The notes: generated by a model from the sequence alone, not told the origin. A stretch of 64,000 bases of DNA from Patescibacteria group bacterium (GCA_028866155.1 JAGWIT010000001.1:165-64164); one strand, 5' to 3'; positions 448 to 60,195 are shown, counted from the stretch's first letter. Translations and numbers: made by a program.

Positions 448-1230
448 CTAGGGCAACGCCGGTGCCGGTGCAGCCAACGTCTCGCACATAATGCTGTTTA
501 TCCGGTGCAAGGTCGTTTTGTACACATAACCGGTCGCGCTGTGGTCGCTCGGCAAACCGTAGGAGACCCACGGCGAGAGCACCTCCTGCCACTCTTTGGT
601 TTGAAATTGCTTCACCGCCGCCAATGTCATCGGGCCAAAGTAGCCGGTGACGGGCAGATTGGCGCTGATATTTTGATTGAGAAACGCCTGCAGTTTTTTA
701 ACTTGGTTGGGATTGTTCTTGCGGCCCATACGCAAATAATCGGTGAGATATGCGCCACAGGTCGAGCTTGCGTCGAGGGTGTCCGCAGTCGAGGTGCCGA
801 GCACGAGGCCGTTTACAAAGCCGGGCGACAAAGGTCCGGAGATGGTGCCGCCTCCCCCACCGCCGCCGGTTGAGTTGTTTGTGTTCGCGGTTGTACCGCC
901 GGTATCGCCTGAACCGCTCTCTCCCCCGCCGCCAGCGGGTGGCGGAGTATCACCCGTGCCGCCGCTTGGTGGTGGGGTAGAGCCGCCGCTGTTACCGTCC
1001 CCGCCAGCAGGTGGAGGAGATGGCGGTGGCGGCGGTGGAGGAGTCTGCCCGCATCCATCGCTTGATAAAGCCGGGAGCGGCGCGCCGATGCGGTTGCTGT
1101 CGCTAAAAACACGGCAAACAATGCGCGTGCCGAGATCCTGCGTGCTTGCTTGTGCAAACGGCGCTGCAACGAATAGAGAAGCGCTCAACGCGAGCAAAAC
1201 AATGCCGTTGTAAAAAAAAGTAGTGCGCAT
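448..1230 (-). CDS. Secreted protein: signal peptide, Pro/Gly/Ser-rich linker, C-terminal peptidoglycan-binding (PG_binding_1-like) domain
   Basis: N-terminal hydrophobic signal (MRTTFFYNGIVLLALSASLFVAAPFAQA), a PPPPPPPSPPP/GGGG low-complexity stretch, and a C-terminal motif LQAFLNQ...GYFGPMTLAAVKQFQ typical of PG-binding domains. SD AAGGGG lies upstream. Confidence 0.6.
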   Translation of the reverse strand: MRTTFFYNGIVLLALSASLFVAAPFAQASTQDLGTRIVCRVFSDSNRIGAPLPALSSDGCGQTPPPPPPPSPPPAGGDGNSGGSTPPPSGGTGDTPPPAGGGGESGSGDTGGTTANTNNSTGGGGGGGTISGPLSPGFVNGLVLGTSTADTLDASSTCGAYLTDYLRMGRKNNPNQVKKLQAFLNQNISANLPVTGYFGPMTLAAVKQFQTKEWQEVLSPWVSYGLPSDHSATGYVYKTTLHRINSIMCETLAAPAPALP

Positions 1231-1357: not shown

Positions 1358-1573
1358 TTATTTTTCAACCCTAACGAGATTCCACAAAAAGAACGACAGT
1401 GCGGAGGTTATAAAACAGATGACGCCGAACGTGTCTTCGCGCGGGTAGGGCAAAAAATGCGTCAGCGGCAGAGAGAGCGTCTGCATATGTACCTCAGCAT
1501 TTAGCACGATATAGAGCCAGCCCAAGAGCCCGAAGACGAACAGGGTTAAAAATAGCGCGCGCAAAAGTTTCAT
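1358..1573 (-). CDS. Small membrane protein (two predicted TM helices), hypothetical
   Basis: 71-aa hydrophobic ORF. Its start overlaps the stop of the upstream GH5 gene (ATGA overlap at 1570-1573), which suggests coupling. Confidence 0.4.
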   Translation of the reverse strand: MKLLRALFLTLFVFGLLGWLYIVLNAEVHMQTLSLPLTHFLPYPREDTFGVICFITSALSFFLWNLVRVEK

Positions 1574-2925
1574 AGTTTAATTGCCTTCCCCAAAGCCTGC
1601 ATGAGCGCATCAAAAGCCGGCTTCTTGCTCCCATCATACCGCAAAAGGCCGTAAAAATTTTCGGTAGTGCCGGGGTCGGTGCCCAAGTCGATGTAGGTGT
1701 ACCAAAACAGCGGCCCGGCAAAACTAAGTTCTCGCACCTGGGTTACTGCATCGGTAAGTATGAGCGCCTGCAGGGCCTCGGATACGTGGTCGGGATTATC
1801 TGCGAGGTTATAGTCACCCACATCGGCGCCCGCGCCCGGGCCGCCCGTTGGCGCGCCAAACTCGGTTATCCATATTTTTTTGGCGCTATCGCCGTGGGCA
1901 ACCATGACACTCCTGAGCGACGGGTTGGTGGCCGCCATCTCCTGCCAAGCGTTCCACTGCGCCGGATAGCTCGGCAACGCCGGGAACGAGTATGGATGAA
2001 AGCCGACGGCATCAAACGAGGGTCCGGCGCCGTCGGTATAGAGTGCCTGCAAAAAATCGACCGGCGCGATGTTGCCGTCCGACGTTTCTGCAGACGCGAG
2101 CCCGCCGGATATGACTTGTGCCGAAGGGTCGGCCTTTTTTATCGCGGCGCTCGCATCCTCAAGCAGTCGCGCGTAGGCGGCCGGGTCGGGCGCGGGCTGC
2201 CAAAACCGCACGATGTTGGGCTCGTTCCATATCTCCCAATCATGCACGCCCTGCGGGGCAAAGTGTACCGCCGCGGCGCCCGCAAACGCCGCGAACTGCA
2301 TGGGGTCGCTCGGCTGGCAGCGACTTGAGCCGCATTCGGGGTCGTGCGCCCACCAAGGCGAAAAGTCGAGGATTGGCAACACCTGTAAGCCTCTTGTATG
2401 TGCCGCCACCACTATCCGGTCGATGACGCGCCAATTGTATGCGCCACCTTGCTCGCGCTGAATGTAACTCCAATCGGCATCAAAACGCAGCCACGTGATG
2501 CCGAGCGCGACAATGGCATCGAGTCGCGCGCCAAGCTGGGCCTCGCTGAGCCCCGAGAAATCATCCCCCACCGATATGCCAAATCCGCTGGTGTTTGCTG
2601 TCATGGCAGGAGGCGGCGCTGTTGGGTTTGTGGCGGTACTTTTGCTTTGAGGCTGTGCGATTGGTGCCGGCGCGGCAAAAGTCGAGCTTGCCGGTCCAGG
2701 CCCCGGGATCGCCGGCACAGAAGGCTCCGGGGCAGTGTCATGCGACGCTATAGGTCTAAACTGAGCCCCGATGCGCTCAGTCGAAAGCCCGAGCAGTATC
2801 GCAAGGCCCGCGATGCCGAGCATAAGAAGAACCCGCTGCGAGAGCGGCTTCAAGGGCTTTTGGGGTTCGTGCTGGGTATCGTGCTTGAAATCTCGCATTT
2901 CGCCGTGCAGTGCAGTATAGTGCAT
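1570..2925 (-). CDS. Membrane-anchored glycoside hydrolase family 5 (cellulase-like)
   Basis: N-terminal TM anchor. GH5 catalytic motifs EIWNEPN (acid/base NEP) and ITEFG (nucleophile) are present. It has a Pro/Ala-rich linker. Confidence 0.7.
   Translation of the reverse strand: MHYTALHGEMRDFKHDTQHEPQKPLKPLSQRVLLMLGIAGLAILLGLSTERIGAQFRPIASHDTAPEPSVPAIPGPGPASSTFAAPAPIAQPQSKSTATNPTAPPPAMTANTSGFGISVGDDFSGLSEAQLGARLDAIVALGITWLRFDADWSYIQREQGGAYNWRVIDRIVVAAHTRGLQVLPILDFSPWWAHDPECGSSRCQPSDPMQFAAFAGAAAVHFAPQGVHDWEIWNEPNIVRFWQPAPDPAAYARLLEDASAAIKKADPSAQVISGGLASAETSDGNIAPVDFLQALYTDGAGPSFDAVGFHPYSFPALPSYPAQWNAWQEMAATNPSLRSVMVAHGDSAKKIWITEFGAPTGGPGAGADVGDYNLADNPDHVSEALQALILTDAVTQVRELSFAGPLFWYTYIDLGTDPGTTENFYGLLRYDGSKKPAFDALMQALGKAIKL
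2916..2921 (+). promoter_or_regulatory. -10 hexamer TATAGT 7 nt upstream of ATG 2929 (leaderless-type)
   Basis: TATAGT at 2916-2921. No SD lies between the hexamer and the ATG. Confidence 0.3.
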
Positions 2926-2928
2926 CCG

Positions 2929-5073
2929 ATGTTATTGCGAAACATGCCCCTATATATAAAATACTGTATCGCTTATTTCCGTAAAGACAGCCTTTTGCGA
3001 AACTCGGTCTACCTCATGCTCGCGACCGGCGTACTGGCGGGGTTCGGGTTCTTTTTTTGGCTTATTGTGGCAAAAACATTTTCTACCGCAGATATTGGTG
3101 TTGCTACCGCGCTCGTCTCTGCAATGAATTTAATTGCCTACCTATCGCTCATGGGTTTCAATGTCGCATTCGTGCGCTTCACCCCGAGCGCTCAGGACAA
3201 AAACGGCAACCTCAATACGGGCCTGTTAGTTGCCACAGCCGCGGCGATCGTATTTTCAATCGCATTCATACTCATAGCGCCGCACATCTCCATGCATTTA
3301 AGTCTGATAGGATATCCGCTTTTTGCCGCGGGCTTCGTGCTTTTTTGTATCGCAACCACGCTCAATTTGCTCACCGATTCTGTGTTTATAGCCAATCGCG
3401 AAGCAAGATATATTTTGTTTATCAACACAGCCTATAGCGCAGCGAAAATTGGACTGCCGCTCCTGTTCTTAAGCGCGGGAGCCTTTGGCATCGTCACCGC
3501 CGCGGCGCTCGCGCAGGCGCTGGGTCTGGGCTTAAGCATCCTCGCAATGATGCATTTGTTTGCATATCGCCCGCACCTTACCTTGAAGTCATCGGTTCTC
3601 GGGCAGGTATGGCGCTACTGCGCCAGCAACTACGTCGCGAGTATTTTTAGCCTTCTGCCTGCCACGGTGATGCCGCTCATGGTCATTGGGGCGCTCGGGC
3701 CTGAACCAGCAGCATACTTTTATATAGCAATGATGATCGGTAATCTCCTATATGTTATCCCGTGGTCGATCACGCGTGCGCTGTTTGCCGAAGGCTCTCA
3801 CGACGAAGTCACTCTATTACAAAACGCCAAAAAGGCGATGTTCATTATTGGAGCGCTCCTCACACCTGCGATATTGTTCTTAGCGCTCTTCGGCAGCTTT
3901 ATTTTGAGCATTTTTGGCCGCGGCTATGCGCAAGGCAACAGTTTGTTGCTGCTCCTTGCGCTTGCAGGCTTCGCGGTTGCGGTGATGGCCATAGCAAACG
4001 CCATATTTTTGGTAACTAAACAATCCCGAGAGGTTGTGGTACTCAATGTTACCTTTGCGATCGCCACTATCGCGTTGGTGTATGCGCTGCTCCCGCTCGG
4101 GCTTTACGGCGTGGGAGTTGGTTGGCTCGTGGGCAATGCGATCGCCGCGCTGGCGGGATACCTACTCTTTCGTCGAGAGTCGATCATGACTAGCTGGTGG
4201 AAAAATTTTAACATCCCTATAACGATTATAGTGGCTAAGTGGCGCTATCTGCGCGCGAGCTTCGCGCGCGGCGATAAACGTACGATTTTGTTCTATCCTC
4301 ACAAGCCGCAGCATTTTCATATCCTCTACGCGATAGTGCATGAGCTAGGCTATGCGGTTACTACCAACCCTTCGAAGTGCCATGAACTTGCTATTGCTTT
4401 TGAAGATCAAACGATCCGTTCGAACGAGCACCATGCAGTGCTCCAAGAACTCGCGCGCACGCAGCCGGTAGCGAACCTCAACTGCGCCGACATATCCAAA
4501 GAAAACATCGAAAAAATATTTAGAGAAACTTACGGCTACAACACCTTTGTGAACCCCGAACAGTATAGCGGCCGGTGTGTGCGCAAATCAAATAACAATT
4601 CCACCCACGACGGAGTGTTCATCGCCTGCCCTGCTGCGAAAGAGCCCGGCTATGTGTATCAAAAATTCATCGAGTGCGAACACGAGGGCCGTATTGCAGA
4701 TCTGCGCGGCATTATCATGGGCGGGAAGCTCAGGCATATCACACTTAAATACAAAGCTCCCGAAGCGCGGTTTGACATCACGAGCGACATATCGATGCGG
4801 CGCCCCGACACGTTGCTGAGTGCGCAAGAAATTGAAGGCGTTGAATCGTTTTGCAAGAGCTTGGGTCTTGATTGCGGCGAGATGGATATACTGCGCGACA
4901 AAACGGATGGCAAAATTTATATAATTGATGTCAGCAACACCTCCGGCGGCCCGGTACGCAACCTGCACCTGCCGGCTCAGGAATATGATGCGTACGTGCA
5001 AATGCTAAGCGAGAGTTTTGCCCGCGCCTACGGCCTAGCGATAGACGCGCGCCTCACCGTTGTCGTACAGTAG
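2929..5073 (+). CDS. Wzx-like polysaccharide flippase (polysaccharide biosynthesis protein family) fused to a C-terminal ATP-grasp-like cytoplasmic domain
   Basis: About 12-14 TM helices with the O-antigen/teichoic-acid exporter-like pattern. The C-terminal ~290 aa (from about 4200) carry an ATP-grasp-like signature DGKIYIIDVSNTSGG (compare NEVNTxPG). The first 177 codons of the listed 891-aa ORF (2398-2928) are an Arg-rich antisense artefact of the GH5 gene. The start may be 2929 or 2944. Confidence 0.55.
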   Translation: MLLRNMPLYIKYCIAYFRKDSLLRNSVYLMLATGVLAGFGFFFWLIVAKTFSTADIGVATALVSAMNLIAYLSLMGFNVAFVRFTPSAQDKNGNLNTGLLVATAAAIVFSIAFILIAPHISMHLSLIGYPLFAAGFVLFCIATTLNLLTDSVFIANREARYILFINTAYSAAKIGLPLLFLSAGAFGIVTAAALAQALGLGLSILAMMHLFAYRPHLTLKSSVLGQVWRYCASNYVASIFSLLPATVMPLMVIGALGPEPAAYFYIAMMIGNLLYVIPWSITRALFAEGSHDEVTLLQNAKKAMFIIGALLTPAILFLALFGSFILSIFGRGYAQGNSLLLLLALAGFAVAVMAIANAIFLVTKQSREVVVLNVTFAIATIALVYALLPLGLYGVGVGWLVGNAIAALAGYLLFRRESIMTSWWKNFNIPITIIVAKWRYLRASFARGDKRTILFYPHKPQHFHILYAIVHELGYAVTTNPSKCHELAIAFEDQTIRSNEHHAVLQELARTQPVANLNCADISKENIEKIFRETYGYNTFVNPEQYSGRCVRKSNNNSTHDGVFIACPAAKEPGYVYQKFIECEHEGRIADLRGIIMGGKLRHITLKYKAPEARFDITSDISMRRPDTLLSAQEIEGVESFCKSLGLDCGEMDILRDKTDGKIYIIDVSNTSGGPVRNLHLPAQEYDAYVQMLSESFARAYGLAIDARLTVVVQ

Positions 5074-7383
5074 ATCTTTGTTTGTATCGAGAAACCCAAT
5101 CGGATAAACATAGGAAATAGGCGTCTCGTTGTAGGAGAGGTTATCTACTCCCCTGCGCACTACCGGAGATCCGACCAGCACATAGGAGCTCTTGCGGATC
5201 AGCCATGGATATACGCCTACCGATACATCAAGGTTATACAGAGCCGTCGAGCTCTGGATCGTTAATTCGCTGCTTTGGAGCTCCGGATGCAAGCCGTCTG
5301 CGATGTCCTTTTGCAGCTGACCGGTAACCCAAGACGTCGCTCGTTCGTCGCTGTGGTCCACGTAGTAGCGGTCGTAATACGAGCCGGAGTTGTTGAGGTA
5401 GAGCGGCGCATCGTAGCCGCCGGTAAGCTGAGCAATCGTGCCTGTGGATAAGAGGAAAAATAAGATTGCGACGATAGTTGCAAAAAGGGTTGCTTTTTTC
5501 TGCTCGGTAAAAAGCACGGCGCTCCCGATCGCCACAAAGAGCGACAGAAACAGGAGCGACTGCTGAAATGCACGCAGTAGTCCGTATTCGACCGAAAGCA
5601 CGGGCAAAACGACAATACCCGCGACCATCACTATACTGCCGCATGCGGCGAGCCAAAACTCCGAATGAATATTCGAGAGGACGCGCCGACTGCCCCGCAG
5701 CGCCGCGCAAAAACCGACGACGACCAAGAGTTGAAGTGCCTTTGCTGAGGATTGCTTCAGAATATAGTTCATTGACGAAACATCAAAACCAAGCGCGCTG
5801 AGCCCTGACCCGAGCGCCGTGAGCGGCATGACTTCCTGCGGCGCAAGGACGATGGGATAACTCTTATAGGCGCTTTGGGCAAAGTAATCGCCGGGGTCGG
5901 CTGCGCGCTGCGGAGCAACGACTTTTTGCTGATACCCGGCAAGGAGCTGCTGTGAGTTGAGCGGATGCCACGAAAAGAGCGCGTAGAGCACGTCGCTGGA
6001 TTGCGCATCCTCCTTACTGTTGCTGGCCATGGTCGCAAGGGTTTCTTTAACGACGCGGACAATGCTGTTTTGAGAGGTGTCGGTCAAGACGCTGCTCCAC
6101 AAAAAGCTCGCTAACATGAGCGAGACTACCATCAGCCCCGTGATGCGCGGCACGGCCGGCACCGCTGAAAGATTAAAGTCGGCAAAGGAGGTGCGTGCGA
6201 ACGGGGAGTAACTGCGCCGCTCAAAAAACCCGCGTACTGCGGAGAGTGCTTTTTGCATCAGGTAGACGAACACGAGAATCGCAATAACGGTATAGGTCGT
6301 CGAGTAATGCGAAAGCACCATGCCGATGCCAAAGAACATAAAGAGTCCGCGACGCAGGCGCATAGAGAGAGACTCTTCGAAGAGCACCAGGAACATGCAG
6401 GCAAGAAAAATAAACGCGATTTCTTGTCGATTGAGATACGGCATATCCATAAAAAATGTCGGAAACGCGACAAAATATACTGCCGATAAAAGCGCGAACG
6501 CCGGTGAGAGATAGCGGCGCACGGTGAGGTAGAGTGCGGGCGGCACGAACGCAAAAAATATTTGGTAAAGAACCTTATAGAGGTATGGGTCGGCCATCGA
6601 AAAGAACCTGGAGAGCGTGGCCGGTAAAATAGTGATGCTCATGCAGGCGTTGTAGGCATCCTGCAGATAGCCGACCGCCCAAAAACCGTGTTCTTTCGCC
6701 AGTTGAAAGACAAGATACTCGCGCTGTATGTCGTGGCCGCTGACATACCACCCGCGCAGACTGGTCATGAACAGGAGCGAAAGCGAAATAAAAAAAAGGG
6801 CAGTCGGTATCACCCACTCCTCGAGGGTTGCGCTGGCGCGCGCCAGCATCCACAGGTATAGTGCAATGCCCAAAAAGCACGCCAAGGTTATGAAGCCGCT
6901 ACCGCCGTTGTTGAGCGCGATGGCACCGGCAACGCTGCATGCCACAAACAATGCCGGACTGAACGCAAAGAGGCACTCTCGCCATGGAAGCGCGGTAAAC
7001 TCTATGCATATGGCGGCATCACCGCTGCGGATCCACGCGGCAAAGGCCAGCGCCACGACGCCAGCCGATACCTCTCCCAGCAGAAACGAAGCTTGAAGAG
7101 GCGTTGCAATACCGAGCGTCGACAGCAGTGTGTTGCCGGCAAGCCCTATGAACATCAACTCGAGTAGCGAGCAGGCGACCATGCATGCCAGCGCGCTCCA
7201 TACCGGCAATCGCACCCGAAGCGCCATGAGGGTAAGAAACCCCGGCAGGATGATGAGAGATATAAATGCCGCTATGTTTTGGATTTGAAAAGCATTGAAA
7301 TGAGTGTTCACCAGCAGGATAAAAAACGTCCACCATATGTCAAACAGCAGCAAAAAATAATCCTTTTTAAGCGTAAGCGTCAT
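5035..7383 (-). CDS. Large polytopic membrane protein (at least 14 TM helices plus a C-terminal extracytoplasmic domain); putative GT-C-type glycosyltransferase or polymerase
   Basis: 782-aa ORF: an N-terminal cluster of TM helices, a soluble loop, further TM helices, and a C-terminal soluble domain. Its start overlaps the stop of the GT4-GT4 gene (7380-7383). It sits in glycan-cluster context. Confidence 0.35.
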   Translation of the reverse strand: MTLTLKKDYFLLLFDIWWTFFILLVNTHFNAFQIQNIAAFISLIILPGFLTLMALRVRLPVWSALACMVACSLLELMFIGLAGNTLLSTLGIATPLQASFLLGEVSAGVVALAFAAWIRSGDAAICIEFTALPWRECLFAFSPALFVACSVAGAIALNNGGSGFITLACFLGIALYLWMLARASATLEEWVIPTALFFISLSLLFMTSLRGWYVSGHDIQREYLVFQLAKEHGFWAVGYLQDAYNACMSITILPATLSRFFSMADPYLYKVLYQIFFAFVPPALYLTVRRYLSPAFALLSAVYFVAFPTFFMDMPYLNRQEIAFIFLACMFLVLFEESLSMRLRRGLFMFFGIGMVLSHYSTTYTVIAILVFVYLMQKALSAVRGFFERRSYSPFARTSFADFNLSAVPAVPRITGLMVVSLMLASFLWSSVLTDTSQNSIVRVVKETLATMASNSKEDAQSSDVLYALFSWHPLNSQQLLAGYQQKVVAPQRAADPGDYFAQSAYKSYPIVLAPQEVMPLTALGSGLSALGFDVSSMNYILKQSSAKALQLLVVVGFCAALRGSRRVLSNIHSEFWLAACGSIVMVAGIVVLPVLSVEYGLLRAFQQSLLFLSLFVAIGSAVLFTEQKKATLFATIVAILFFLLSTGTIAQLTGGYDAPLYLNNSGSYYDRYYVDHSDERATSWVTGQLQKDIADGLHPELQSSELTIQSSTALYNLDVSVGVYPWLIRKSSYVLVGSPVVRRGVDNLSYNETPISYVYPIGFLDTNKDLLYDNGEARVYR

Positions 7384-9605
7384 ATGATGGTTTCGTAGGT
7401 TTGAAGCGTTGTCTTAAGAATGGCGCCCCAATCGTAGTTGCGCACATCCTCAATATTGTGGGCGCTTATCTGGGGATAGAGGCCTTTTTCGGTGACAAGC
7501 CGCATGATCGCCTTGCACATCGCACCAACGGAGAGAGGCGCGAGGAGACCGTTGCGCCCGTCTTGAATGACGTTGCGCGTGCCAACCACATTTGACGCCA
7601 CGATAGGCAATCCTTTAGCCATTGCCTCAAGCAAAACAGTGCTAAAGCCTTCCATGAGCGAAGCCAAGACGCATACGTCCGATTCTTCGTATATGGTTTC
7701 CAGATCTTTTCCGAGTTTTACGCCGACCAATCGAACCTGCGACTCAAGATTTTTCTTTCGGACAAGAGTCTCAAGCGCCTCGCGGTCGCCGCCGCCCACG
7801 ATAGTGAGGGTGAACGCTAGATTGTGAGTATGCTTTAACGCTTCTGCAACATCTATGAGGAACGGATAATTTTTTTGTACGGATATCCTGCCGACGGCGA
7901 GCAGGCGCAATGGCGCATGGCATGTGGAACACGGCTTTTCAAGGACAGCAAACGACGTCGCGTTCGGAATAACGACGATTTTTTCTTCAGAAATTCCAAA
8001 TTGGCCCACGAGGATATTTTTATAATCCGGTGTAAGTACAATTATTTTTGCTGCGCCGCCAAATACCCACCTCAACACAAAATGCGTATACAAAGGCAGC
8101 AATAGCTTCCCTATTCGTCCCGAGGGGATGATTAACATCCGCACGTGGGCAATATAGGGTATCCCTCGAATGCGCGCGACAGCGGCTGTGATTTCCGCAA
8201 AAAAAGCATGGGCGACATGCAGATGGATGAGGCTGTTTTTATTTAATCGGAACAGCTGCCATACGAGCCCCAAAGCAAGGGGGGTATGAAGAAACTCCAA
8301 GGCACGCAGATAGAAGACCTTTACGCCGTCTTGCAGATATAGACCGGCAGGAGTGCCGACGTTCGACGTTAAAACACTTATATCCAGGCCTGCTCTGACT
8401 TGCAATATTGCTAACTCTCGGATGCGTTGTTCCATCCCGCCTAGATGGGGCGGGTAATAGGCGCTCACATGTACGATGGCCATATAATTTCTTGAGAGAA
8501 CTGCGTCATAGCATTGCGCACGCTCCTCCCAAGAAAAATCTTTTAGAACCCGGGTACGCGCCGATGTGCCAAACGCCGCCGCGAGCCCTTGGTCTCTCAA
8601 AAGGAGGAGCAGCTTTTGCGCCAGCGCACGCTCATCGCCGGGCTCAATCAAAAAACCGGTCTCTCCTTCTTCAACCAAGTCGGGGATGCTCCCCACCCGC
8701 GTTGACACCACGGGCAAACTACAGCTCATCGCTTCAAGAATGGTGAGCGGGAAGTTGTCGTTGCCGGTCGGCAGGGCGAACACGTGCGCCTGATTGTAGC
8801 GTTTAACGAGCGCGCTGCCCGAAAGCCTCCCGGCAAACTCGGCGCGCCCGCCCAGCCCGAGATCCTGTGCTTCCCTTTCGTATTGTTCTCGCATATCGCC
8901 GTCTCCGACGATTATCACGCGCACGGTTGGAAGCAGGTTTGAAACTTCTTTGCACGCGCGCAAAAGAGTGCTCAAGCCCTTATACCGCTCGCCGCGGCCG
9001 AGCCCGCCCACAAACAAAATGGTCGGGTCTTTAGCTTTTGACGCTCCGTCCGGCATAAAGACGCTCGCGACCGCGGGCGTGATGATAGTGCTTTTGTGCT
9101 GATAGCGGTGCAGAAAATCGCGCCATATATACGCAGAGGTGCAAATAATCCGGTCGGCCCGGCGCAAAAGCAGGCGCAGAGGCCCGTGTTCATAGAGCCA
9201 TGCGATGATATCAGCTGCGAGAGCGCCCTTGCGCATGCTGCCGGCGTGGTAGGTGATGATGATATTGCGCGAGCCGGCGGCCAAAGCGGCGATGTCGCCA
9301 ATGCCCGGCACCGGCATGTGGATGTTGATGACATCCGGGTTCTCTTTTTCGAGTAATTTTCGGATCGCGCCAAACCATGCAAGCGAGACGGGCGTGTTGG
9401 ATATTTTAATCTGATACTTCAGCCGGTATATGCGCAAGCCGTCCCGCTCTTCTACCTCATCTTTCTCACCCGAGGTGAGAACCACCGCTCGCCAGCCGTG
9501 CTGTTTTGCGAGCCTCGTCGCAATTTCGGAGGCATAGCGCTCAAGGCCGCCGCCCTGCGGCGGCCAGTAGGGCGCGACGACGAGTATGGTGCGCCGGTCT
9601 TTCAT
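7380..9605 (-). CDS. Tandem glycosyltransferase family 4 (GT4-GT4) fusion protein
   Basis: Two complete GT-B/GT4 modules in one 741-aa ORF, each with the EX7E-type C-terminal motif (first module: ILEAMSCSLPVVST...GETGFLIE; second module: LLEAMAKGLPIVAS...GRNGLL). Confidence 0.7.
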   Translation of the reverse strand: MKDRRTILVVAPYWPPQGGGLERYASEIATRLAKQHGWRAVVLTSGEKDEVEERDGLRIYRLKYQIKISNTPVSLAWFGAIRKLLEKENPDVINIHMPVPGIGDIAALAAGSRNIIITYHAGSMRKGALAADIIAWLYEHGPLRLLLRRADRIICTSAYIWRDFLHRYQHKSTIITPAVASVFMPDGASKAKDPTILFVGGLGRGERYKGLSTLLRACKEVSNLLPTVRVIIVGDGDMREQYEREAQDLGLGGRAEFAGRLSGSALVKRYNQAHVFALPTGNDNFPLTILEAMSCSLPVVSTRVGSIPDLVEEGETGFLIEPGDERALAQKLLLLLRDQGLAAAFGTSARTRVLKDFSWEERAQCYDAVLSRNYMAIVHVSAYYPPHLGGMEQRIRELAILQVRAGLDISVLTSNVGTPAGLYLQDGVKVFYLRALEFLHTPLALGLVWQLFRLNKNSLIHLHVAHAFFAEITAAVARIRGIPYIAHVRMLIIPSGRIGKLLLPLYTHFVLRWVFGGAAKIIVLTPDYKNILVGQFGISEEKIVVIPNATSFAVLEKPCSTCHAPLRLLAVGRISVQKNYPFLIDVAEALKHTHNLAFTLTIVGGGDREALETLVRKKNLESQVRLVGVKLGKDLETIYEESDVCVLASLMEGFSTVLLEAMAKGLPIVASNVVGTRNVIQDGRNGLLAPLSVGAMCKAIMRLVTEKGLYPQISAHNIEDVRNYDWGAILKTTLQTYETII

Positions 9606-10288
9606 ACGAGTGCGCAGTTCTGCACATACGCAACCTCTTTACGCTTGCCTATATGCGCAAGCACGCGCTCGAGGCGCTCCCAATCGCTGTTTTTTTCTAT
9701 CTCCCACGAATGCCCCCACAGGTGGAAGACGCCGCCGTCTTGTGCAATTTCATCGAACAGTGTCGTGGCGAGCTCATCCCAATTGAGGTATCCGCTCAAA
9801 AATCTTTTGCCCATGTGCCGCGCTACCCCGAGCGCGTCGCTGTAATGCCGGTAGGCATGGATGGTCGTGGGCGCGGCAAACGGGTCGCCGATGCCGCCCT
9901 CGAAGCGCTCAACGGTGCGCGCGAACGTAAATCCGGCATCCTTGACCATTGCCTTGTGCGCTCCGATAAAGGCGCCGCCCGGGTAGCAAAAACTGCTCAC
10001 CGGAGATCCCAGTACATCCTCCAAAAACTTTTTAGAATCGACAATTTCCTGCCGCGCAACCTCGCTCGATACCTCGGTCAAGCGCGGGTGCGTCATGGTG
10101 TGCGCGCCTATCTCAAACGCGTGCGCCAACTCGCGCACTTGAGCGCCGGTGAGCCGCTCATCTGCAGGGATCTCCCGGCATTGCGGCGATATATAAAAGG
10201 TACCGCTCACTGCGTGCTTGCGCAGGAGCTCGGCAACGCGCATATCGAGGGCGTGTCCGTCATCCCAGCTGGTCGTTACGGTCGTCAT
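9602..10288 (-). CDS. Polysaccharide deacetylase (NodB homology, CE4 family)
   Basis: TSWDDG motif (the TFDDG equivalent), His motifs HTMTHP and HLWGHSWE. The stop overlaps the downstream ATG (ATGA at 9602-9605). There is a 1-nt gap to the upstream gene's stop. Confidence 0.7.
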   Translation of the reverse strand: MTTVTTSWDDGHALDMRVAELLRKHAVSGTFYISPQCREIPADERLTGAQVRELAHAFEIGAHTMTHPRLTEVSSEVARQEIVDSKKFLEDVLGSPVSSFCYPGGAFIGAHKAMVKDAGFTFARTVERFEGGIGDPFAAPTTIHAYRHYSDALGVARHMGKRFLSGYLNWDELATTLFDEIAQDGGVFHLWGHSWEIEKNSDWERLERVLAHIGKRKEVAYVQNCALV

Positions 10289-10289
10289 A

Positions 10290-12137
10290 TCAGGCTAATG
10301 CACCCTCGAGGTTCTTGGCGACGGAGCCCCAGTCATACTGCTCGAGCGCGAGATTGGGCGTGAGGATATATTTCCCGCTTTTAATCTGGAGGATCTTTTG
10401 GGCGATGCTGTGTTCGTTCGGCTCGGCAAGAAAACCGTTGACCCCTTCGATAATAAGATCTTGGGCCGCATTGTCCGGATGCGATGTCGTGATAACCGGC
10501 AGGCCCGCGGCAAAGGCCTCTATCGCGACCAGCCCGAACCCTTCGCGTACCGAAGGCAGCACGAGCATGGTCGATGCCTTCATAAGGCTCCAAAGCTCGC
10601 GGTGGGTGCCCGCGCGCGCAAAAGAAACGTGCCGCTCCAAGCCGAGCGAGGATATGAGCTTTTCTATGCTCTGCTTTTGCGGCCCATCGCCCACTATCGT
10701 GCAGGTGATATCCGGCAGGGATTCTTTGACGACGGCAATCGCCTTTACCAACAGGTCGGCATGCTTATGCTCGAGCAGCCTCCCCACAAAAATAACGTCA
10801 CTGCGCTCCTCTCCTGCCTGTGCCGTGTATATATCGTCGAGATCAACGCCGAGCGGCACCGTGTGTATCTCTTTGGTCACGCCGGCGTTGAGGAGGCGGC
10901 GGGTCGTGTGCGCGGAGTTCGATACGATAACATCGGGCGTGCGCAGAGCCAGCCACTCAACAAGCGCGCCGCACCGGCCGACGAGCCCCGGCGCGTACTG
11001 TGCCCAATACTCGCCGCCCCACACCTCGTGCCACGTGCCGTAGAGCTTCTTCCTTTTAATCCACGTCACGATGCGCGCGCTAAAGAGCGGAAAAAACGGC
11101 ATGTGGTCGACATCAAGCACATCGAAGCTCACAAACAGGAGCTTCAGCGTCGCTGCGCCGAACATCAGCGCTTGCCTCAGCGAACGGCGCTCGCCGCTAT
11201 AAAGCGGATAATATCTGCACAGCGCGTGCAACATGACTCCGTCTCGCACAATCGTCTTGGGCCCGTCCCACCACCGCATCGTATAGATGTGCACCTCGCG
11301 TGCGGGGCCGGCCAGCCTTTTTGAAATCTCATAGAGCCTTTTTTCCTTCCCGCCGTTGAAGTACGGCATGACTGAGTCCGACACAAACGCCACGCGCCGC
11401 GGCGCTGCGGGTGCCTCTAACGGCTTCCACCGAATATTGCGCGCGAACATCAGCAGAATGCGGCCGCCGTCGTACAACGGCCGCAGAGACGAGCTCCCCT
11501 TACGCGGCGCGTAGCTTATCGGCACCGAGCAGATATCTTCGCCGAGGCGCGCCATCTTGGTTATCATCTCCATCTCGATGGCAAACCCTTCTGAGGTAAG
11601 GTGCGGACGCAATCGCAGAGCCGCCTCGCGACTCCAGGCAAAGTAACCGGTGAGCACGTCGGTGACGTTGACGCGATAAAAATAGCGCACGAGGTGCGAG
11701 TATATCCAGTTGCCGAGGCGGTTGAGCCACGCCATCGAGCCTTCTTGTATCTTGCCGCCGAGGCGCGAGCCGACCACCACGCTGCTGAACCCGGAGGAAA
11801 GCGGCTCGACCATCCGCACGATCTCGCGCGAGGCATACGTGTCATCGCCGTCGAGCATCACGATATAGTCGCACTCCGGCGGTATCGAGCTCATCGCCCG
11901 CCGTATCGCGTGGCCTTTGCCTTGCCGCGGCTCGTGCACCACCTGCGCGCCGCATTCGCGGGCGATTTGCGCCGTCTTGTCGGTGCTGTTGTTGTCAATC
12001 ACCATAACCGAGAGCTCATACCCGTATTGCTGCAGCTTCTCGCGCGGGAAAGAGCGGATAACGTCGGCGATGCCTTTTTCTTCGTTATAACAAGGGATGA
12101 AGGCGACTATCTTCTCGGTTTTTGGTTTGGAGGCCAT
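10290..12137 (-). CDS. GT2 (Dpm1-like family 2 glycosyltransferase) fused to GT4 glycosyltransferase
   Basis: N-terminal FIPCYNEE...MLDGDD (GT2 DXD) and C-terminal EGFGLVAIEAFAAGLPVI...EGVNGFL (GT4). The true start is taken as ATG 12137 (MASKPKTEK). The upstream 84 codons of the listed ORF are a probable artefact. Confidence 0.65.
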   Translation of the reverse strand: MASKPKTEKIVAFIPCYNEEKGIADVIRSFPREKLQQYGYELSVMVIDNNSTDKTAQIARECGAQVVHEPRQGKGHAIRRAMSSIPPECDYIVMLDGDDTYASREIVRMVEPLSSGFSSVVVGSRLGGKIQEGSMAWLNRLGNWIYSHLVRYFYRVNVTDVLTGYFAWSREAALRLRPHLTSEGFAIEMEMITKMARLGEDICSVPISYAPRKGSSSLRPLYDGGRILLMFARNIRWKPLEAPAAPRRVAFVSDSVMPYFNGGKEKRLYEISKRLAGPAREVHIYTMRWWDGPKTIVRDGVMLHALCRYYPLYSGERRSLRQALMFGAATLKLLFVSFDVLDVDHMPFFPLFSARIVTWIKRKKLYGTWHEVWGGEYWAQYAPGLVGRCGALVEWLALRTPDVIVSNSAHTTRRLLNAGVTKEIHTVPLGVDLDDIYTAQAGEERSDVIFVGRLLEHKHADLLVKAIAVVKESLPDITCTIVGDGPQKQSIEKLISSLGLERHVSFARAGTHRELWSLMKASTMLVLPSVREGFGLVAIEAFAAGLPVITTSHPDNAAQDLIIEGVNGFLAEPNEHSIAQKILQIKSGKYILTPNLALEQYDWGSVAKNLEGALA

Positions 12138-12144
12138 ATCAGAT

Positions 12145-12612
12145 TTAAGACCCGGCGGAAAAATGGATGGAAAGGCCCTGCTCCGGCAGGCCCACGACAA
12201 CCACAGATGCGGCGCGCACGACGGGGAGCGTCTCTTGCATCGAAGCGGAGCCGTTGTCCTCAAGCGAGACTGTGCCCGAGTCGATGATGCGCGAGCCGCC
12301 CTGCGACTCCAGAAGCACCGTATATGGATAATCGACGCGGCGGCCCTCCAGATTGTGTATCGTAAATGAAAACGGCGCCGCACTTTCAAGCGAAGCCTTC
12401 GGCAGTATCCCGGTAAAATACAGCTCGGTGAGCGGCTCGTTTTGCGGGGTCAGGTTGAGCTCTGCGAGCACGCGCTCAACCGGCTGATAGATAAAAAAAA
12501 CCAATGCCGCGGCAAGGCACAGCGCGAGCACTGCAGCGAAAAAAGCATATTGGCGGAGGATAGCCATAGCAGTGAAGCACCAACATCTTACCGAAATGCG
12601 CCGCTCTTTCAA
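12145..12612 (-). CDS. Membrane-anchored hypothetical protein (first gene of the glycan operon)
   Basis: ORF with an N-terminal TM helix. It ends 7 nt before the GT2-GT4 start. The start may be the internal ATG (MAILRQ) at about 12567. Confidence 0.35.
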   Translation of the reverse strand: MKERRISVRCWCFTAMAILRQYAFFAAVLALCLAAALVFFIYQPVERVLAELNLTPQNEPLTELYFTGILPKASLESAAPFSFTIHNLEGRRVDYPYTVLLESQGGSRIIDSGTVSLEDNGSASMQETLPVVRAASVVVVGLPEQGLSIHFSAGS

Positions 12613-12650: not shown

Positions 12651-13121
12651 ATGAAATCCCGCTGGATCATACTTGCGCTTTTGCTCGCCGTTATCGTCGC
12701 CGGCGCGGCGGCGCTCGTCCTCATCCCCCGCCCGCAAACCGCCGTGGCACCGACGGGGGAAGGAGCCACAACAACTCCTGCCGCAAGCGGCTCATCGCTT
12801 GATGATTTAATAAAGGTCACAACGCCTGCACCTAACGCCTCAGTCGCTTCACCGCTTATGGTCGAAGGACAAGCCCGCGGCAACTGGTTCTTTGAGGCGA
12901 CCGCCCCCATGGCTTTGCTCGACGCAAACGGCAGCGTTATCGCGCAAGGCGCCATTACCGACAGCGGCGACTGGACCAGCGGCGACTTCGGAGCATTTAC
13001 CGGGTCTCTTACCTTTCCCGATCAACCGGCCGGCTCTCAAGGCACGTTGGTGCTCAGCAATGACAACCCCTCGGGCAATCCTGCCACTCAAAAGACACTT
13101 GATATACCGGTAACGTTTTAA
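12651..13121 (+). CDS. Secreted Gmad2-type immunoglobulin-like domain protein
   Basis: Signal peptide, Thr/Ala-rich linker, and a domain with MVEGQARGNWFFEA...ITDSGDWTSGDF that resembles Gmad2 Ig-like domains. Confidence 0.45.
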   Translation: MKSRWIILALLLAVIVAGAAALVLIPRPQTAVAPTGEGATTTPAASGSSLDDLIKVTTPAPNASVASPLMVEGQARGNWFFEATAPMALLDANGSVIAQGAITDSGDWTSGDFGAFTGSLTFPDQPAGSQGTLVLSNDNPSGNPATQKTLDIPVTF

Positions 13122-13130
13122 TTTCTGCGG

Positions 13131-13679
13131 TTAGAGCCCCGAGTGATCGCTGCGGGCTCCGCGGGATTCGCGTTCGAAGGAGTCTAACTTTAGGTTTTCG
13201 GCCTTCCAGCCCACGCCGTTGGCCCAAATTTGGATAAGCGAGCCGGCTCCCGCCAGGGCCAAAAAGAAGATAATAGACCACGCCCACGGATATATAAAGT
13301 AGAAGAACACCACCGCTAAGGCCGACCAGATGCCGATGCACCATGGGCACTGGAGCAGGTCGTAGATGGTATGACGAAAGCCGCTGCCAAAGGGCTGTAT
13401 CTCAACATACGTTGCGCCGCCTTCGGTAAACTCGCGGCTGTAGGCAAACAGCTCGCGAAACCAGCGGGTTATTTTGTCGTACACTATCAAGCGCGTGATG
13501 CGAAAGGTCGCCAGCGCCATGAGCAGCGCGTCAAACGGCGGCACCGACACCAAAAACCCGCCACGCATGAGGTTCATGACGTATAAAGCGGCTACTAATA
13601 CGCACATGAAGAACACGCTAAAAATAAAATTCCATAAATTTTGGTCCTCTTTGTGGCGCTTGTGTATCATAGCCTTCAC
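13131..13679 (-). CDS. DUF1360-family integral membrane protein
   Basis: RITRLIVYDKITRWFR motif and four TM segments, typical of DUF1360. Confidence 0.45.
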   Translation of the reverse strand: MKAMIHKRHKEDQNLWNFIFSVFFMCVLVAALYVMNLMRGGFLVSVPPFDALLMALATFRITRLIVYDKITRWFRELFAYSREFTEGGATYVEIQPFGSGFRHTIYDLLQCPWCIGIWSALAVVFFYFIYPWAWSIIFFLALAGAGSLIQIWANGVGWKAENLKLDSFERESRGARSDHSGL

Positions 13680-26871: not shown

Positions 26872-33750
<6,879 letters not shown>

Positions 33751-41285: not shown

Positions 41286-42203
41286 TTATTTTTTCTGGTT
41301 TTTAATCTGTATTTTTTGCAGTGCTTTCGTCACGATGGGCAGCACGTCGTCATAGAAGTTGAGTTCCAAAGCGTCCTGCAAACGAAACCACTTTGCGTCA
41401 TCGAGCCCCCCGGTCTGCTTCAGCGTAATCTCGGCGTACGGTGACTCGGCCAAAAAATACGTCACCTGCTTGCGCTTCTTCCCCACCTCCGGGTCCGAAG
41501 CGATATATTCGTTGTCACCGACCTTTTCCTTAAGCGTGATATCAAGATTCATCTCCTCTTTTATCTCGCGGATAGTGCCTTCCTCGACGGTTTCATTGGC
41601 AATCTCGGGCTTGTCGCCTATCTTGCCCTTGCTTAGCGTCCAATGGCCAAAAATGTCGTGGACGACCGCGAGATATATGTCGCCTTGATGCCTGGCGTAC
41701 ACCACCGCGCCGCCGAGCTTCTCAACGGGCATCTGCGCGTAAGGCACGTCCTTCTTCTTTTTTGAGACTTCGTCCTTGCCGGGCTCGCCCAGCTCTTTGT
41801 AGACCGCGCCTAAGACGCCGTTGACAAAGCGGCCGCTGTTCTCGCCGCCGAAGCTTTTGGCAAGCTCTATCGCTTCGTTGATAGCGACTTTTGCCGGCAC
41901 CTTTTGCCGGTCGGAGAATAATAGTTCATATAACCCGAGACGCAAAACATTGCGGTCAACCGGCGCTATGCGCGAAAGAGGCCACTCGGGCGCGGCCTTT
42001 TCTATCACCAAATCCAAGTCAGAGCGGCGCGCGACCACCCCTTTAAGCAACTCTTCCATAAACGGCAAGTCGCCCGCCTGGGGGGCAAACTCGGCCGCGT
42101 TTCTTTCAAGTGCAAATTTCGCATCACCAGCAGTGATACTGCGAAAGTCCCACTCGAAGAGCGTCTGGAGGACGACCGATCGTGACAGGTGCCGGTTTGC
42201 CAT
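41286..42203 (-). CDS. nusB: NusB transcription antitermination factor fused to a C-terminal NUDIX-like hydrolase domain
   Basis: The N-terminal ~140 aa are classic NusB (VDRNVLRLGLYEL, VAINEAIELAKSFGGENSGRFVNGVL). The C-terminal ~150 aa carry a Nudix-box-like REIKEEMNL preceded by GKIGDKPE. Confidence 0.7.
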   Translation of the reverse strand: MANRHLSRSVVLQTLFEWDFRSITAGDAKFALERNAAEFAPQAGDLPFMEELLKGVVARRSDLDLVIEKAAPEWPLSRIAPVDRNVLRLGLYELLFSDRQKVPAKVAINEAIELAKSFGGENSGRFVNGVLGAVYKELGEPGKDEVSKKKKDVPYAQMPVEKLGGAVVYARHQGDIYLAVVHDIFGHWTLSKGKIGDKPEIANETVEEGTIREIKEEMNLDITLKEKVGDNEYIASDPEVGKKRKQVTYFLAESPYAEITLKQTGGLDDAKWFRLQDALELNFYDDVLPIVTKALQKIQIKNQKK

Positions 42204-52214: not shown

Positions 52215-52856
52215 TTACCTCGGGACGAGCGAGTATGCCCCTACAAAGTCGGCTGAGACGACGAACCGGTTGGTCTTGTCGGCGAACGAGTCGCACGTCG
52301 AGAGCACGAGGTGTCTGCCATCCGTCGGAAGTTCTACCACATCCTCGGTGGCATCGGCAACCCTCACGCCAACGACGCTGTAGCGATACTCGGTGGTGTC
52401 CGAGTAAACGCTCACGATGTCGCCGGTCTTGAGATTCTGGATGCCGTCGAAGGTTTTGTAGTACTGGTGATAGACAATAGGCAGGTAGGACGAATGGCCG
52501 AAGAGATACACCGTGCCGTCAACGCCAAGAAGCGATGAAGTCGGGTAGCGCACCGCTCCCTGCGTGAGCGCATCGTCCAAAATGCCGGCATCGGTCGACA
52601 CCGGATTTTGTACCGCGACATCCAGACCGATCGACTTGGCAACCACGCGGACAGGGTTCTCGGGTTGGTCGGCTGCGGCAGGCGTGTTGGTGGTTTGCGG
52701 CGCGTTCGCCGAGTCCGTAGAGTTAAGCGGGTTTGGAGTTGCACCCACCGCCGCCAGAAACGCGGATGTGCCGACGAACATGAGTAAAAACACCGCCGCA
52801 AAGGCAAACGGGTGTTCAGAAATGTGGAAGATGGCTCCTTGGCCGGGGCGCTCCAT
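52215..52856 (-). CDS. Sortase-family transpeptidase (membrane-anchored)
   Basis: N-terminal TM anchor. The His region is LFGHSS. The catalytic TLxTC-type motif is HLVLSTCDSF. A conserved Arg is present (NRFVVSADFVG). Confidence 0.7.
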   Translation of the reverse strand: MERPGQGAIFHISEHPFAFAAVFLLMFVGTSAFLAAVGATPNPLNSTDSANAPQTTNTPAAADQPENPVRVVAKSIGLDVAVQNPVSTDAGILDDALTQGAVRYPTSSLLGVDGTVYLFGHSSYLPIVYHQYYKTFDGIQNLKTGDIVSVYSDTTEYRYSVVGVRVADATEDVVELPTDGRHLVLSTCDSFADKTNRFVVSADFVGAYSLVPR

Positions 52857-58959: not shown

Positions 58960-60195
58960 ATGGACATCTGGGCTCTGGGCATTTATGCGTCCCTCTTTTT
59001 GAGCCTTTATTTTGAGGTATTTTTGTTCATTTCTTTCTTTGAAAGAAGGCCTTACAAGAAGACACTCTTGAAGCCGCACCGCTACCCCACCGTATCAATG
59101 CTTGTGCCGTGCTTTAACGAAGAGCGAACTCTCGCGCAGACGGTCGACTCTTTGCTCGCGCTCGACTATCCGCAAGAAAAACTCGAGGTCGTCATCGTCG
59201 ATGACGGGTCAACCGACCGGACGCGCGCCATCGGCGAGGAGCTTGCGCGTAAAAATCCGCGGATAACTTTCATCCACAAAGAGAACGGCGGCAAATACAC
59301 GGCGCTCAACCTCGGGATAGAGCGCTCGACGGCGGAGTTGGTCGGATGCCTCGACGCCGACTCGTTCGTAGCACCGGACGCTCTTATCGAGGTGGTGAAG
59401 AGCCTTGAGGCCGACCCCGCCATTATGGCTGTCACGCCCGCGATGAAGGTCTATCGCCCGCGCACGATTTTAGAGGCTATGCAGGCGGTCGAATACACCT
59501 TTGGTATTTTTTATAAAAAAATGTTCGATAATCTGGCCGCGCTCAATGTTTTGCCGGGGCCGTTCTCAATCTACCGCCGCGATGTGTTTAAAAAAATAGG
59601 CCTCTTCCGCCATGCGCACAACACCGAGGACATGGAGATAGCGTTTCGCATGCATGCCAACGGGCTCAAAATAGTCAATGCGCATACGGCGTTCGTCTAC
59701 ACCACGGTGCCCAAAACAGTGCGCGGGCTTATCAAACAGCGCACGCGCTGGTCGCAGGGCTTTTTGCAGAACTCGCGCGACTACAAATATATGTACTTCA
59801 ACCCTCGCTACGGCAACTTCGGGATGCTGGTCCTGCCGCTCGGGCTCTCGGCGTTCGTGGGCGGGATATACACGGCCGGTTATACGCTCTACCGGAGCGC
59901 CAGCTTTGCCTGGATGCGCGTGAGCGACTTGTGGGCGACCGGCATCCCGCCGCACCTGCCGGTCGCGGCAAACTTTACGTGGTACTACATCAACACTAGC
60001 ATGATGGTGTTCCTTATCGTGGCGGTGTTTTGCATGACGATTGCCTCGATAGCGCTCGGACATCGGATAGCCCAGACCGAGCTTAGGGCCAGGTCGTTCG
60101 TATATTATTTTGCGTTGTTCGGATTTATAGCGCCCGTGTGGCTCGCGCGCGCCGCGGTGGGCGCGATGCTCTCGCGGGACGCCTCGTGGCGCTAG
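58960..60195 (+). CDS. Processive family-2 glycosyltransferase (membrane-embedded, QxxRW motif)
   Basis: DDGSTD and DAD(S) motifs, and QRTRWSQG (QxxRW) typical of cellulose/chitin/PNAG-synthase-like processive GT2. N- and C-terminal TM helices. Confidence 0.7.
   Translation: MDIWALGIYASLFLSLYFEVFLFISFFERRPYKKTLLKPHRYPTVSMLVPCFNEERTLAQTVDSLLALDYPQEKLEVVIVDDGSTDRTRAIGEELARKNPRITFIHKENGGKYTALNLGIERSTAELVGCLDADSFVAPDALIEVVKSLEADPAIMAVTPAMKVYRPRTILEAMQAVEYTFGIFYKKMFDNLAALNVLPGPFSIYRRDVFKKIGLFRHAHNTEDMEIAFRMHANGLKIVNAHTAFVYTTVPKTVRGLIKQRTRWSQGFLQNSRDYKYMYFNPRYGNFGMLVLPLGLSAFVGGIYTAGYTLYRSASFAWMRVSDLWATGIPPHLPVAANFTWYYINTSMMVFLIVAVFCMTIASIALGHRIAQTELRARSFVYYFALFGFIAPVWLARAAVGAMLSRDASWR

Follow-up and report, generated by a model that had tools for sequence, protein, structure and literature searches.

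The locus at positions 1358-12612 of a 64,000-nucleotide (nt) stretch of DNA from a Patescibacteria group bacterium (GCA_028866155.1, JAGWIT010000001.1:165-64164; the whole stretch is called the window, and positions are counted from its first letter) raises the question of what kind of envelope-glycan pathway is encoded by its closely packed, partly fused genes, and of whether the fusions themselves are real. A first-pass annotation, made from the sequence by itself, had described an envelope-glycan cluster of fused two-domain enzymes and had assigned it to a Wzx/Wzy-type pathway. The domain identities obtained here supported an envelope-glycan cluster, and the region is one copy of a conserved, self-contained cassette found in ~80 species-level genomes from three phyla. 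The fusions are real, recurrent merges of adjacent coupled genes and are not peculiar to the source genome.

Gene order, distribution and fusions of the cassette

One genome per species was scanned for relatives of the DUF2206 membrane protein of the locus, relatives were found in 320 species, and 80 loci were fetched; the window domains were searched against the stop-to-stop open reading frames (ORFs) of all loci. Gene order was conserved in these related genomes (L001-L083), most loci sharing the series U155, GT2, GT4, CE4, GT4, GT4, DUF2206, (GT4), Wzx, hydrolase, S71 (GT, glycosyltransferase; CE4, deacetylase; U155 and S71, small membrane proteins), and contigs with orthologues of the Wzx fusion carried a matching cluster. 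Carriers were found in Patescibacteria (Adlerbacteria, Kaiserbacteria, Yonathbacteria, Saccharimonadia, Paceibacteria), in Actinomycetota, including the cultured Pseudonocardia thermophila, Streptomyces specialis, S. gilvus, Amycolatopsis halotolerans and Actinoplanes liguriensis, and in Chloroflexota (Ktedonobacteraceae).

In the window, an operon of five minus-strand genes extends from 12612 (or 12567) to 5035 and encodes U155, which comes first (12145-12612, 155 amino acids (aa) when counted from the first TTG), a GT2-GT4 fusion (10290-12137, 615 aa), the CE4 deacetylase (9602-10288, 228 aa), a GT4-GT4 tandem fusion (7380-9605, 741 aa) and the DUF2206 polytopic membrane protein (5035-7383, 782 aa). 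The plus strand carries a Wzx-ATP-grasp fusion (2929-5073, 714 aa), consisting of a Wzx half of the MOP superfamily with ~12 transmembrane (TM) helices (2929-4188) and an ATP-grasp half of ~294 aa (4189-5073). Two further minus-strand genes encode a PslG-like hydrolase (1570-2925, 451 aa from the first ATG) and S71 (1358-1573, 71 aa, two TM helices), the latter lying within the region first annotated and passed over in its description.

All ORF positions and all four gene junctions of the operon were as first annotated when read directly from the sequence, and the genes are tightly coupled. The TAA of U155 (12147-12145) is separated by 7 nt (ATCTGAT) from the ATG at 12137, the TGA of GT2-GT4 (10292-10290) is separated by 1 nt from the ATG at 10288, and ATGA overlaps join CE4 to GT4-GT4 (9605-9602) and GT4-GT4 to DUF2206 (7383-7380). 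A further ATGA overlap (1573-1570) couples the hydrolase and S71, and the 3' ends of the convergent Wzx-ATP-grasp and DUF2206 genes share 39 nt (5035-5073), a like convergent overlap being indicated by gene coordinates in L001 and L003. Tight spacing is not special to this locus, since same-strand gene pairs elsewhere in the window lie 1-12 nt apart (e.g. 56307-58145/58147-58941 and 40584-41279/41286-42203). The hydrolase and Wzx genes diverge, with annotated starts merely 3-18 nt apart (2925-2944), so that either each gene has its promoter within the coding region of the other, or the starts are wrongly set. Hexamers resembling promoter elements were seen in this divergent region at 2935-2962 (plus strand) and 2941-2914 (minus strand), and the promoter/terminator consensus scan as a whole was uninformative (9 promoter-like sites, 7.3 expected).

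Across the loci, different lineages showed different merges of the one ordered gene set. Fusions of GT4 with GT4 were found in 38 loci (28/53 among low-GC loci), of Wzx with ATP-grasp in 10, of GT2 with GT4 in 9, of CE4 with its upstream GT4 in 9, of CE4 with its downstream GT4 in 13 (10 low-GC and 3 high-GC), of one to three GT4 domains with DUF2206 in 9 (up to 1797 aa, in L025), and of Wzx with GT4 in 2; at least one fusion was present in 40/53 low-GC loci. The source is a metagenome-assembled genome, in which a one-base error at an ATGA overlap could join two frames, and assembly or frameshift artefacts had therefore to be weighed. They are highly improbable: independent assemblies repeat each of the three window fusions in the loci just counted, ~20 orthologous Wzx-ATP-grasp proteins of ~700 aa exist, and the frames run unbroken through each junction, which is flanked by conserved residues on either side. 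The mosaic of fusion states across loci likewise indicates merges of neighbouring genes in a tight operon. All three fusions of the window are thus real two-domain proteins, both halves of GT4-GT4 and GT2-GT4 being found by Pfam, and those of Wzx-ATP-grasp through orthologues and structure.

The concentration of fusions had been called unusual for this locus, which did not hold: it is a property of the cassette across lineages, and the same genome carries other fusions. At 26872-33750 (minus strand) a 2292-aa ORF has RpoB domains (aa 19-1047) with RpoC domains (aa 1066-2170) immediately behind them, and at 41286-42203 (minus strand) a 305-aa ORF combines NusB (aa 7-136) with a NUDIX hydrolase (aa 170-282), a neighbour-type fusion. 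Fusions of rpoB with rpoC are known in Helicobacter and Wolbachia.

Proteins encoded by the cassette

Public annotation of these proteins is generic ("DUF2206 domain-containing protein", "lipopolysaccharide biosynthesis protein", "hypothetical protein"). NCBI holds exact copies of the Wzx-ATP-grasp, DUF2206 and U155 proteins, recorded from a Patescibacteria metagenome-assembled genome on a contig of 78.7 kb. Among the Pfam families proposed for them at the outset, PF00534, PF00535 and PF01522 were recovered, PF00150 was borderline, and PF01943 and ATP-grasp matches were weak for the window protein.

For the GT2-GT4 protein, Pfam found both halves (PF00535, E 1e-20; PF13439, E 9e-13; PF00534, E 5e-40), with the GT2 domain at ~11439-12110 (minus strand; DXD motif DGDD) and the GT4 domain at ~10377-11354 (minus strand; PF13439, PF00534). 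In L001 the two are separate proteins of 236 aa and 377 aa whose genes share an ATGA overlap. Against NCBIfam, the GT2 half matched AglJ (TIGR04182, E 7e-54, 183 bits, cut-off 325), Dol-P-hexose transferase (E 7.5e-25) and PpgS (E 2.5e-17), every score being below the equivalog cut-off, and in a sequence search of the PDB the best match was the Pyrococcus furiosus DPMS (5mlz, E 5.8e-9), followed by ArnC. All of these nearest matches (AglJ, Dol-P-hexose transferase, PpgS, DPMS, ArnC) make polyprenyl-monophosphate sugars, and no TM helix was predicted in the GT2 domain. By these matches, the GT2 half is assigned to the polyprenyl-phosphate sugar synthase group (DPMS/AglJ/ArnC-like) and not to GT2 enzymes in general.

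In the GT4-GT4 protein, Pfam matched PF13439/PF13579 twice and PF00534/PF13692 twice (lowest E 2e-69), placing the first GT4 at ~8553-9551 and the second at ~7506-8441 (both minus strand). No linker stands at the junction (...SRNY-M-AIVHV...), where the start Met of the once separate downstream gene is retained. In L003 the halves match two different genes, one aligning to the GT4 part of a CE4-GT4 protein and the other to a 364-aa GT4, and the whole aligns to a fused 753-aa protein in L001.

The CE4 protein is of NodB type (PF01522, E 6.7e-18), its PDB matches were CE4 peptidoglycan/polysaccharide deacetylases, and HfsH and NodB were among its NCBIfam matches. Motifs SWDDG and HTMTH, carrying the NodB Asp-His-His metal triad, are present; a motif-3 Arg was not evident. 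No signal peptide or TM segment was predicted, and the protein is predicted to be cytoplasmic. Since it has neither and is fused in other loci to cytoplasmic GT4 domains, its target is most likely a lipid-linked intermediate inside the cell, rather than an exported polymer. HfsH, NodB and ArnD-type enzymes are known to deacetylate lipid-linked intermediates. Of the earlier proposal of a partly de-N-acetylated polymer, the deacetylase itself was thus confirmed, whereas its most likely site of action lies before export.

The Wzx half of the window protein gave weak PF01943 and PelG matches below cut-off. Among fused Wzx-ATP-grasp orthologues PF01943 was found in 18/21 (best E 2e-15) and PF13440 in 15/21, and stand-alone Wzx proteins of ~420 aa are 45-49% identical to the Wzx half. 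Both halves, weak in Pfam here, are firmly established through these orthologues and through structure, which also bore out the first assignment of the C-terminal domain to ATP-grasp. Translation starts at 2929 or 2944; a start at 3016, used by some orthologues, was rejected because the residues upstream of it (DSLxRNSxYLM) are conserved at the protein level in 17/21 orthologues.

The ATP-grasp domain is attached to the cytoplasmic C-terminus of the ~12-TM Wzx and has the three-subdomain ATP-grasp fold. Residues K107, K136, Q161, R176, D236, R239 and D250 were invariant in 20 sequences and align with the RimK motifs DIR, VDILR and EVN; in the window domain the Asn of D-x-N is replaced by Ser, with an Asn one position later (DVSNT). 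These residues leave ligase and kinase activity undecided, and the ligase role is putative. The family has no Pfam model, and most members tested gave no Pfam match. A profile search of 1.84 billion representative proteins returned 1529 clusters (937 at E<=1e-30), mostly stand-alone proteins of ~300 aa, and by this measure it is a sizeable family lacking a Pfam model. ATP-grasp was found in only ~13/82 loci and is an accessory module of the cassette. It is a separate gene in L008, occurs as two tandem domains behind Wzx in a 1029-aa protein (P0002, L031), and follows Wzx as two separate genes of ~310 aa each within the same cassette in L087 (7085-8948). In L085 (3822-5573, P0263) a member of the cassette's ATP-grasp family is joined to an ornithine-cyclodeaminase/mu-crystallin domain, beside three GT2 genes, which hints at an amino-acid-type ATP-grasp substrate. 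No paper on a Wzx-ATP-grasp fusion was found in the literature. As a separate observation, a FAD_binding_3 monooxygenase-like gene stands in or beside the cassette in some genomes (L001, 12053-13432; L087, 2066-3418), and in L001 it sits between Wzx-ATP-grasp and DUF2206.

The 782-aa DUF2206 protein, first described as a candidate polymerase or GT-C transferase, has ~15 TM helices, a beta-rich domain at its C-terminus and loops or domains that are extracytoplasmic. Its core has the polytopic GT-C fold, and ArnT was among its GT-C matches; the GT-C alternative was thereby upheld, and structural support for a Wzy or WaaL identity was not found. An oligosaccharyltransferase of STT3/AglB/PglB type was also rejected, a search of the 782 aa for W[WY]D[YWF]G giving no WWDYG motif and Pfam giving no STT3 match. 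Invariant residues are R210, H217, D218, E222, K270, D313, R319, E321, R344, H359 and R604, of which D218, E222, D313 and E321 lie in loops predicted to face outward and are candidate counterparts of the GT-C catalytic acid. The fusion of GT4 to the N-terminus of DUF2206 in other loci places that N-terminus in the cytoplasm. Giant GT4-DUF2206 fusions occur in some Saccharimonadales and Paceibacteria; a GT4-GT4-GT4-DUF2206 ORF of 1797 aa was seen in L025 (about 10001-12322 and upstream), and L009, L014, L023 and L027 carry GT4-GT4-DUF2206 proteins of 1525-1619 aa. Literature searches returned nothing relevant on DUF2206, nor on GT-C enzymes in the candidate phyla radiation (CPR).

The hydrolase had been filed under GH5. 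Clan GH-A stood, with a borderline Pfam GH5 score (PF00150, 25.4 bits, cut-off 23.5) and a GH39 score below cut-off (20.4 bits, cut-off 26), and PslG was a far better match (4zn2/5bx9, E 1.7e-23, residues 119-444, ~325 aligned), followed by GH39 xylosidases. The catalytic Glu motifs NEP and TEFG are present and align with those of PslG, and one N-terminal TM anchor was found. The protein is thus classed, on its matches and motifs, as a membrane-anchored PslG-like clan GH-A enzyme, for which a strict GH5 filing is unjustified. Relatives were present in 55/82 loci, and the presence of a PslG-like hydrolase suggests that the product may be a polymer that gets trimmed or released.

The two small membrane proteins are conserved in cassettes of different phyla. 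U155 has a single TM helix at its N-terminus, and its C-terminal domain is conserved, beta-rich and marked by the motif (F/L)TELYF...F(S/T)FxIHNxEG..YxY...IHF. It had no Pfam or NCBIfam family match, and a DUF1616-like identity, considered from the TELYF motif, was dropped after no such Pfam match appeared even at E<=10. NCBI carries a 140-aa model from the ATG at 12567 ('hypothetical protein KGH79_00045'), which is likely the true start; a promoter-like site at 12612-12585 fits it. U155 relatives adjoin the GT2 gene in most loci that have U155. S71 is a two-TM hairpin with a conserved loop (HPxTLxLPLTHxxPxPREDTFG) and no family match; its relatives were found in 25 loci, usually adjoining Wzx or the hydrolase, and are tandemly duplicated in several actinobacterial loci.

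Proposed pathway and its rivals

We consider it somewhat probable that the cassette carries out Wps/Gac-type glycosylation on polyprenyl monophosphate, supplemented by CE4 and, optionally, by ATP-grasp. GT2 synthase, flippase and GT-C are co-encoded and syntenic in most of the ~80 loci, and we infer that this set functions as a multi-component system of transmembrane glycosylation. The steps after gene merging are those that we infer from family membership and from the Wps/Gac precedent. The TM-less GT2, possibly assisted by the adjacent U155, would take a hexose, probably an N-acetylated one, from a nucleotide sugar and load it onto polyprenyl monophosphate at the inner membrane face. Three GT4 domains would lengthen the lipid-linked sugar to a short oligosaccharide, from which the cytoplasmic CE4 would strip an N-acetyl group. 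Where present, the Wzx-tethered ATP-grasp would join a carboxylate and an amine using ATP just before translocation ('modify then flip'), the most economical chemistry being either to re-acylate the amine that CE4 exposes or to amidate a sugar acid. In mycothiol synthesis, the steps of MshA, MshB and MshC likewise end in a ligation onto a freed sugar amine, parallel to CE4 and ATP-grasp. Wzx would then flip the product, the GT-C-fold DUF2206 would transfer or polymerise the glycan onto an outer-face acceptor (wall polymer, protein or lipid), and the membrane-anchored PslG-like hydrolase would trim or release it.

Of the Wzx/Wzy-type pathway proposed at first, the Wzx component stood, by way of the orthologues, and the Wzy component did not. 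A priming phosphoglycosyltransferase (PGT), Wzy and a chain-length regulator (PCP) were not found by Pfam among the large ORFs of the 64-kb window, as would be expected if the GT2 primes on polyprenyl monophosphate. Several points weigh against Wps/Gac-type glycosylation. The genome could carry a priming PGT at some other place, like wecA for many O-antigens; the AglJ match of the GT2 lies under the NCBIfam equivalog cut-off (183 against 325 bits), and the same GT2 group includes enzymes with non-lipid acceptors, such as GpgS (E 5e-13); U155, with one TM helix and an outward-facing domain, is unlike the three-TM GacJ/WpsB; and the usual acidic motif of GT-C external loop 1 (EL1) was not placed with certainty in DUF2206.

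With such a distant PGT priming undecaprenyl phosphate, the cassette would instead build a diphosphate-linked unit of a classical Wzx/Wzy heteropolysaccharide, DUF2206 acting as polymerase in place of Wzy, a reading that we consider unlikely though deserving of attention. It is doubtful that the genes serve two branches, in which GT2, CE4, a small flippase (S71?) and GT-C would decorate a polymer with a single cationic amino sugar taken from polyprenyl-P-HexN, as in Arn, Lgm or PpgS-Rv3779, while the GT4s and Wzx make the acceptor, a separate lipid-linked glycan or a glycolipid. GT4 genes stand on both sides of CE4, and its frequent fusions are with GT4, not with GT2, nothing points to a second acceptor pathway, and Wzx-type flippases suffice for GacK-type monosaccharide flipping, so that S71 need not be a flippase. 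A lipoglycan route (PIM/LM-like or HexSDF/GlcN-lipid-like) would have the GT4s glycosylate a glycerolipid, CE4 deacetylate it, Wzx flip it and DUF2206 elongate it outside with polyprenyl-P-sugar supplied by the GT2. The GT4 halves match dozens of unrelated GT4 models in NCBIfam equally well or better, including EpsE, stp2 and BshA, and known Wzx substrates are polyprenyl-linked, not glycerolipids; this route is held to be very doubtful. Each of these three rivals fits fewer observations than Wps/Gac-type glycosylation.

A more far-reaching variant, which we regard as speculative and doubtful, is a counterpart of the archaeal Agl pathway, in which an oligosaccharide built on polyprenyl monophosphate would be transferred en bloc by DUF2206, with an 'edit-and-flip' step by CE4 and ATP-grasp in a subset of loci. 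In that step, CE4 and the Wzx-tethered ATP-grasp may replace the N-acetyl group by an amino-acyl group, or by another acyl group, right before flipping. The acceptor may then be protein or wall, and the glycan may be the main surface glycan of many Patescibacteria. If true, an 'edit-and-flip' machine would be previously undescribed, and the glycan would be common to Patescibacteria and Actinomycetota, the phylum of known Saccharibacteria hosts.

The natural fusion mosaic is strong 'Rosetta-stone' evidence for one membrane-associated assembly line, and the fusions fix its topology, with the DUF2206 N-terminus and CE4 in the cytoplasm. Patescibacteria (CPR) form a large share of bacterial diversity and live attached to host cells, their surface glycans are almost unstudied, and the cassette belongs to the few envelope pathways of several genes that many CPR classes have in common. 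Since culturable Actinomycetota have it too, a tractable host could be used for genetic and biochemical dissection of the pathway.

Genomic surroundings and comparison with known systems

The cluster is flanked by housekeeping genes, including those for ribonucleotide reductase, TruB, HisRS, sigma-70 and DnaG. Rfam and tRNA scans returned tRNA-Thr alone, and a regulatory RNA near the cluster was not found. Beside the cassette, positions 448-1230 (minus strand) encode an apparently secreted 260-aa protein that has a C-terminal PG_binding_1 domain and a long low-complexity stretch rich in Pro, Gly, Ser and Thr, and at the other end 12651-13679 encodes a Gmad2 Ig-like domain protein and a DUF1360 membrane protein. 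Among envelope-related genes further away are a sortase (52215-52856, minus strand) and a 411-aa GT2 of the processive chitin/cellulose-synthase-like type (58960-60195, plus strand; PF13641, PF13632, Chitin_synth_2), which may belong to a second envelope-glycan system; L003 has a similar gene immediately upstream of its cassette.

Among characterised pathways, the GT2 polyprenyl-P-sugar synthase, de-acylase and GT-C transferase logic of the cassette is that of ArnC/ArnD/ArnT, Bordetella LgmABC and mycobacterial PpgS/Rv3779, and ArnC and PpgS were among the GT2 matches, as was ArnT among those of the GT-C. Those systems move one sugar, without GT4 extension or Wzx, whereas the cassette CE4 stands amid GT4 genes. 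The archaeal AglJ differs in that the cassette GT2 scores below its equivalog cut-off. The Psl locus of Pseudomonas aeruginosa resembles the cassette in its PslG-type hydrolase and in having one GT2, several GT4 and a Wzx-like protein; the cassette, in a monoderm host, is without homologues of PslA (PGT), PslD/E (export, chain-length) and PslJ (Wzy-like), and adds GT-C and CE4.

For the Wzx-ATP-grasp fusion, a parallel is offered by MprF, in which a lipid-modifying synthase and a flippase form one protein, so that the cytoplasmic modifier is physically tied to a membrane protein that handles lipid or glycan, and by Campylobacter jejuni Cj1438, an ATP-grasp amidoligase that amidates a sugar acid of surface polysaccharide (PMC11800379). 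The cassette enzyme is likewise proposed to act on a surface polysaccharide; in contrast to both, its flippase is of MOP/Wzx type and its modifier belongs to an ATP-grasp family for which Pfam has no model. A link between the cassette and the growth-important exopolysaccharide locus SEML1_0081-0083 of a Saccharibacteria transposon-sequencing paper was not established.

The closest likeness is to the lactococcal Wps pathway of PSP and to streptococcal GacIJKL, both working on undecaprenyl monophosphate, in which a TM-less DPMS-like GT2 and a small membrane partner make GlcNAc-P-C55, cytoplasmic GTs extend it, Wzx flips it and a GT-C polymerises or attaches it (PMC10821137; 10.1101/180810; PMC8035078). 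Shared with the cassette are the TM-less DPMS-like GT2 beside a small membrane protein, extension by cytoplasmic GTs, Wzx, an outer GT-C and no need of a PGT, and natural fusions of parts are known there too (GacJ-GacI). The cassette differs in its GT-C, the unstudied DUF2206, in extension by three GT4 domains, in a U155 unlike GacJ/WpsB, and in the addition of a cytoplasmic CE4, the PslG-like hydrolase, U155, S71 and the optional ATP-grasp; its hosts are Patescibacteria, Actinomycetota and Chloroflexota. The system is best placed with a known type, multi-component transmembrane glycosylation, and what is new in it is a set of uncharacterised families: an unstudied GT-C family, a large unmodelled ATP-grasp family, and the two small membrane proteins U155 and S71.

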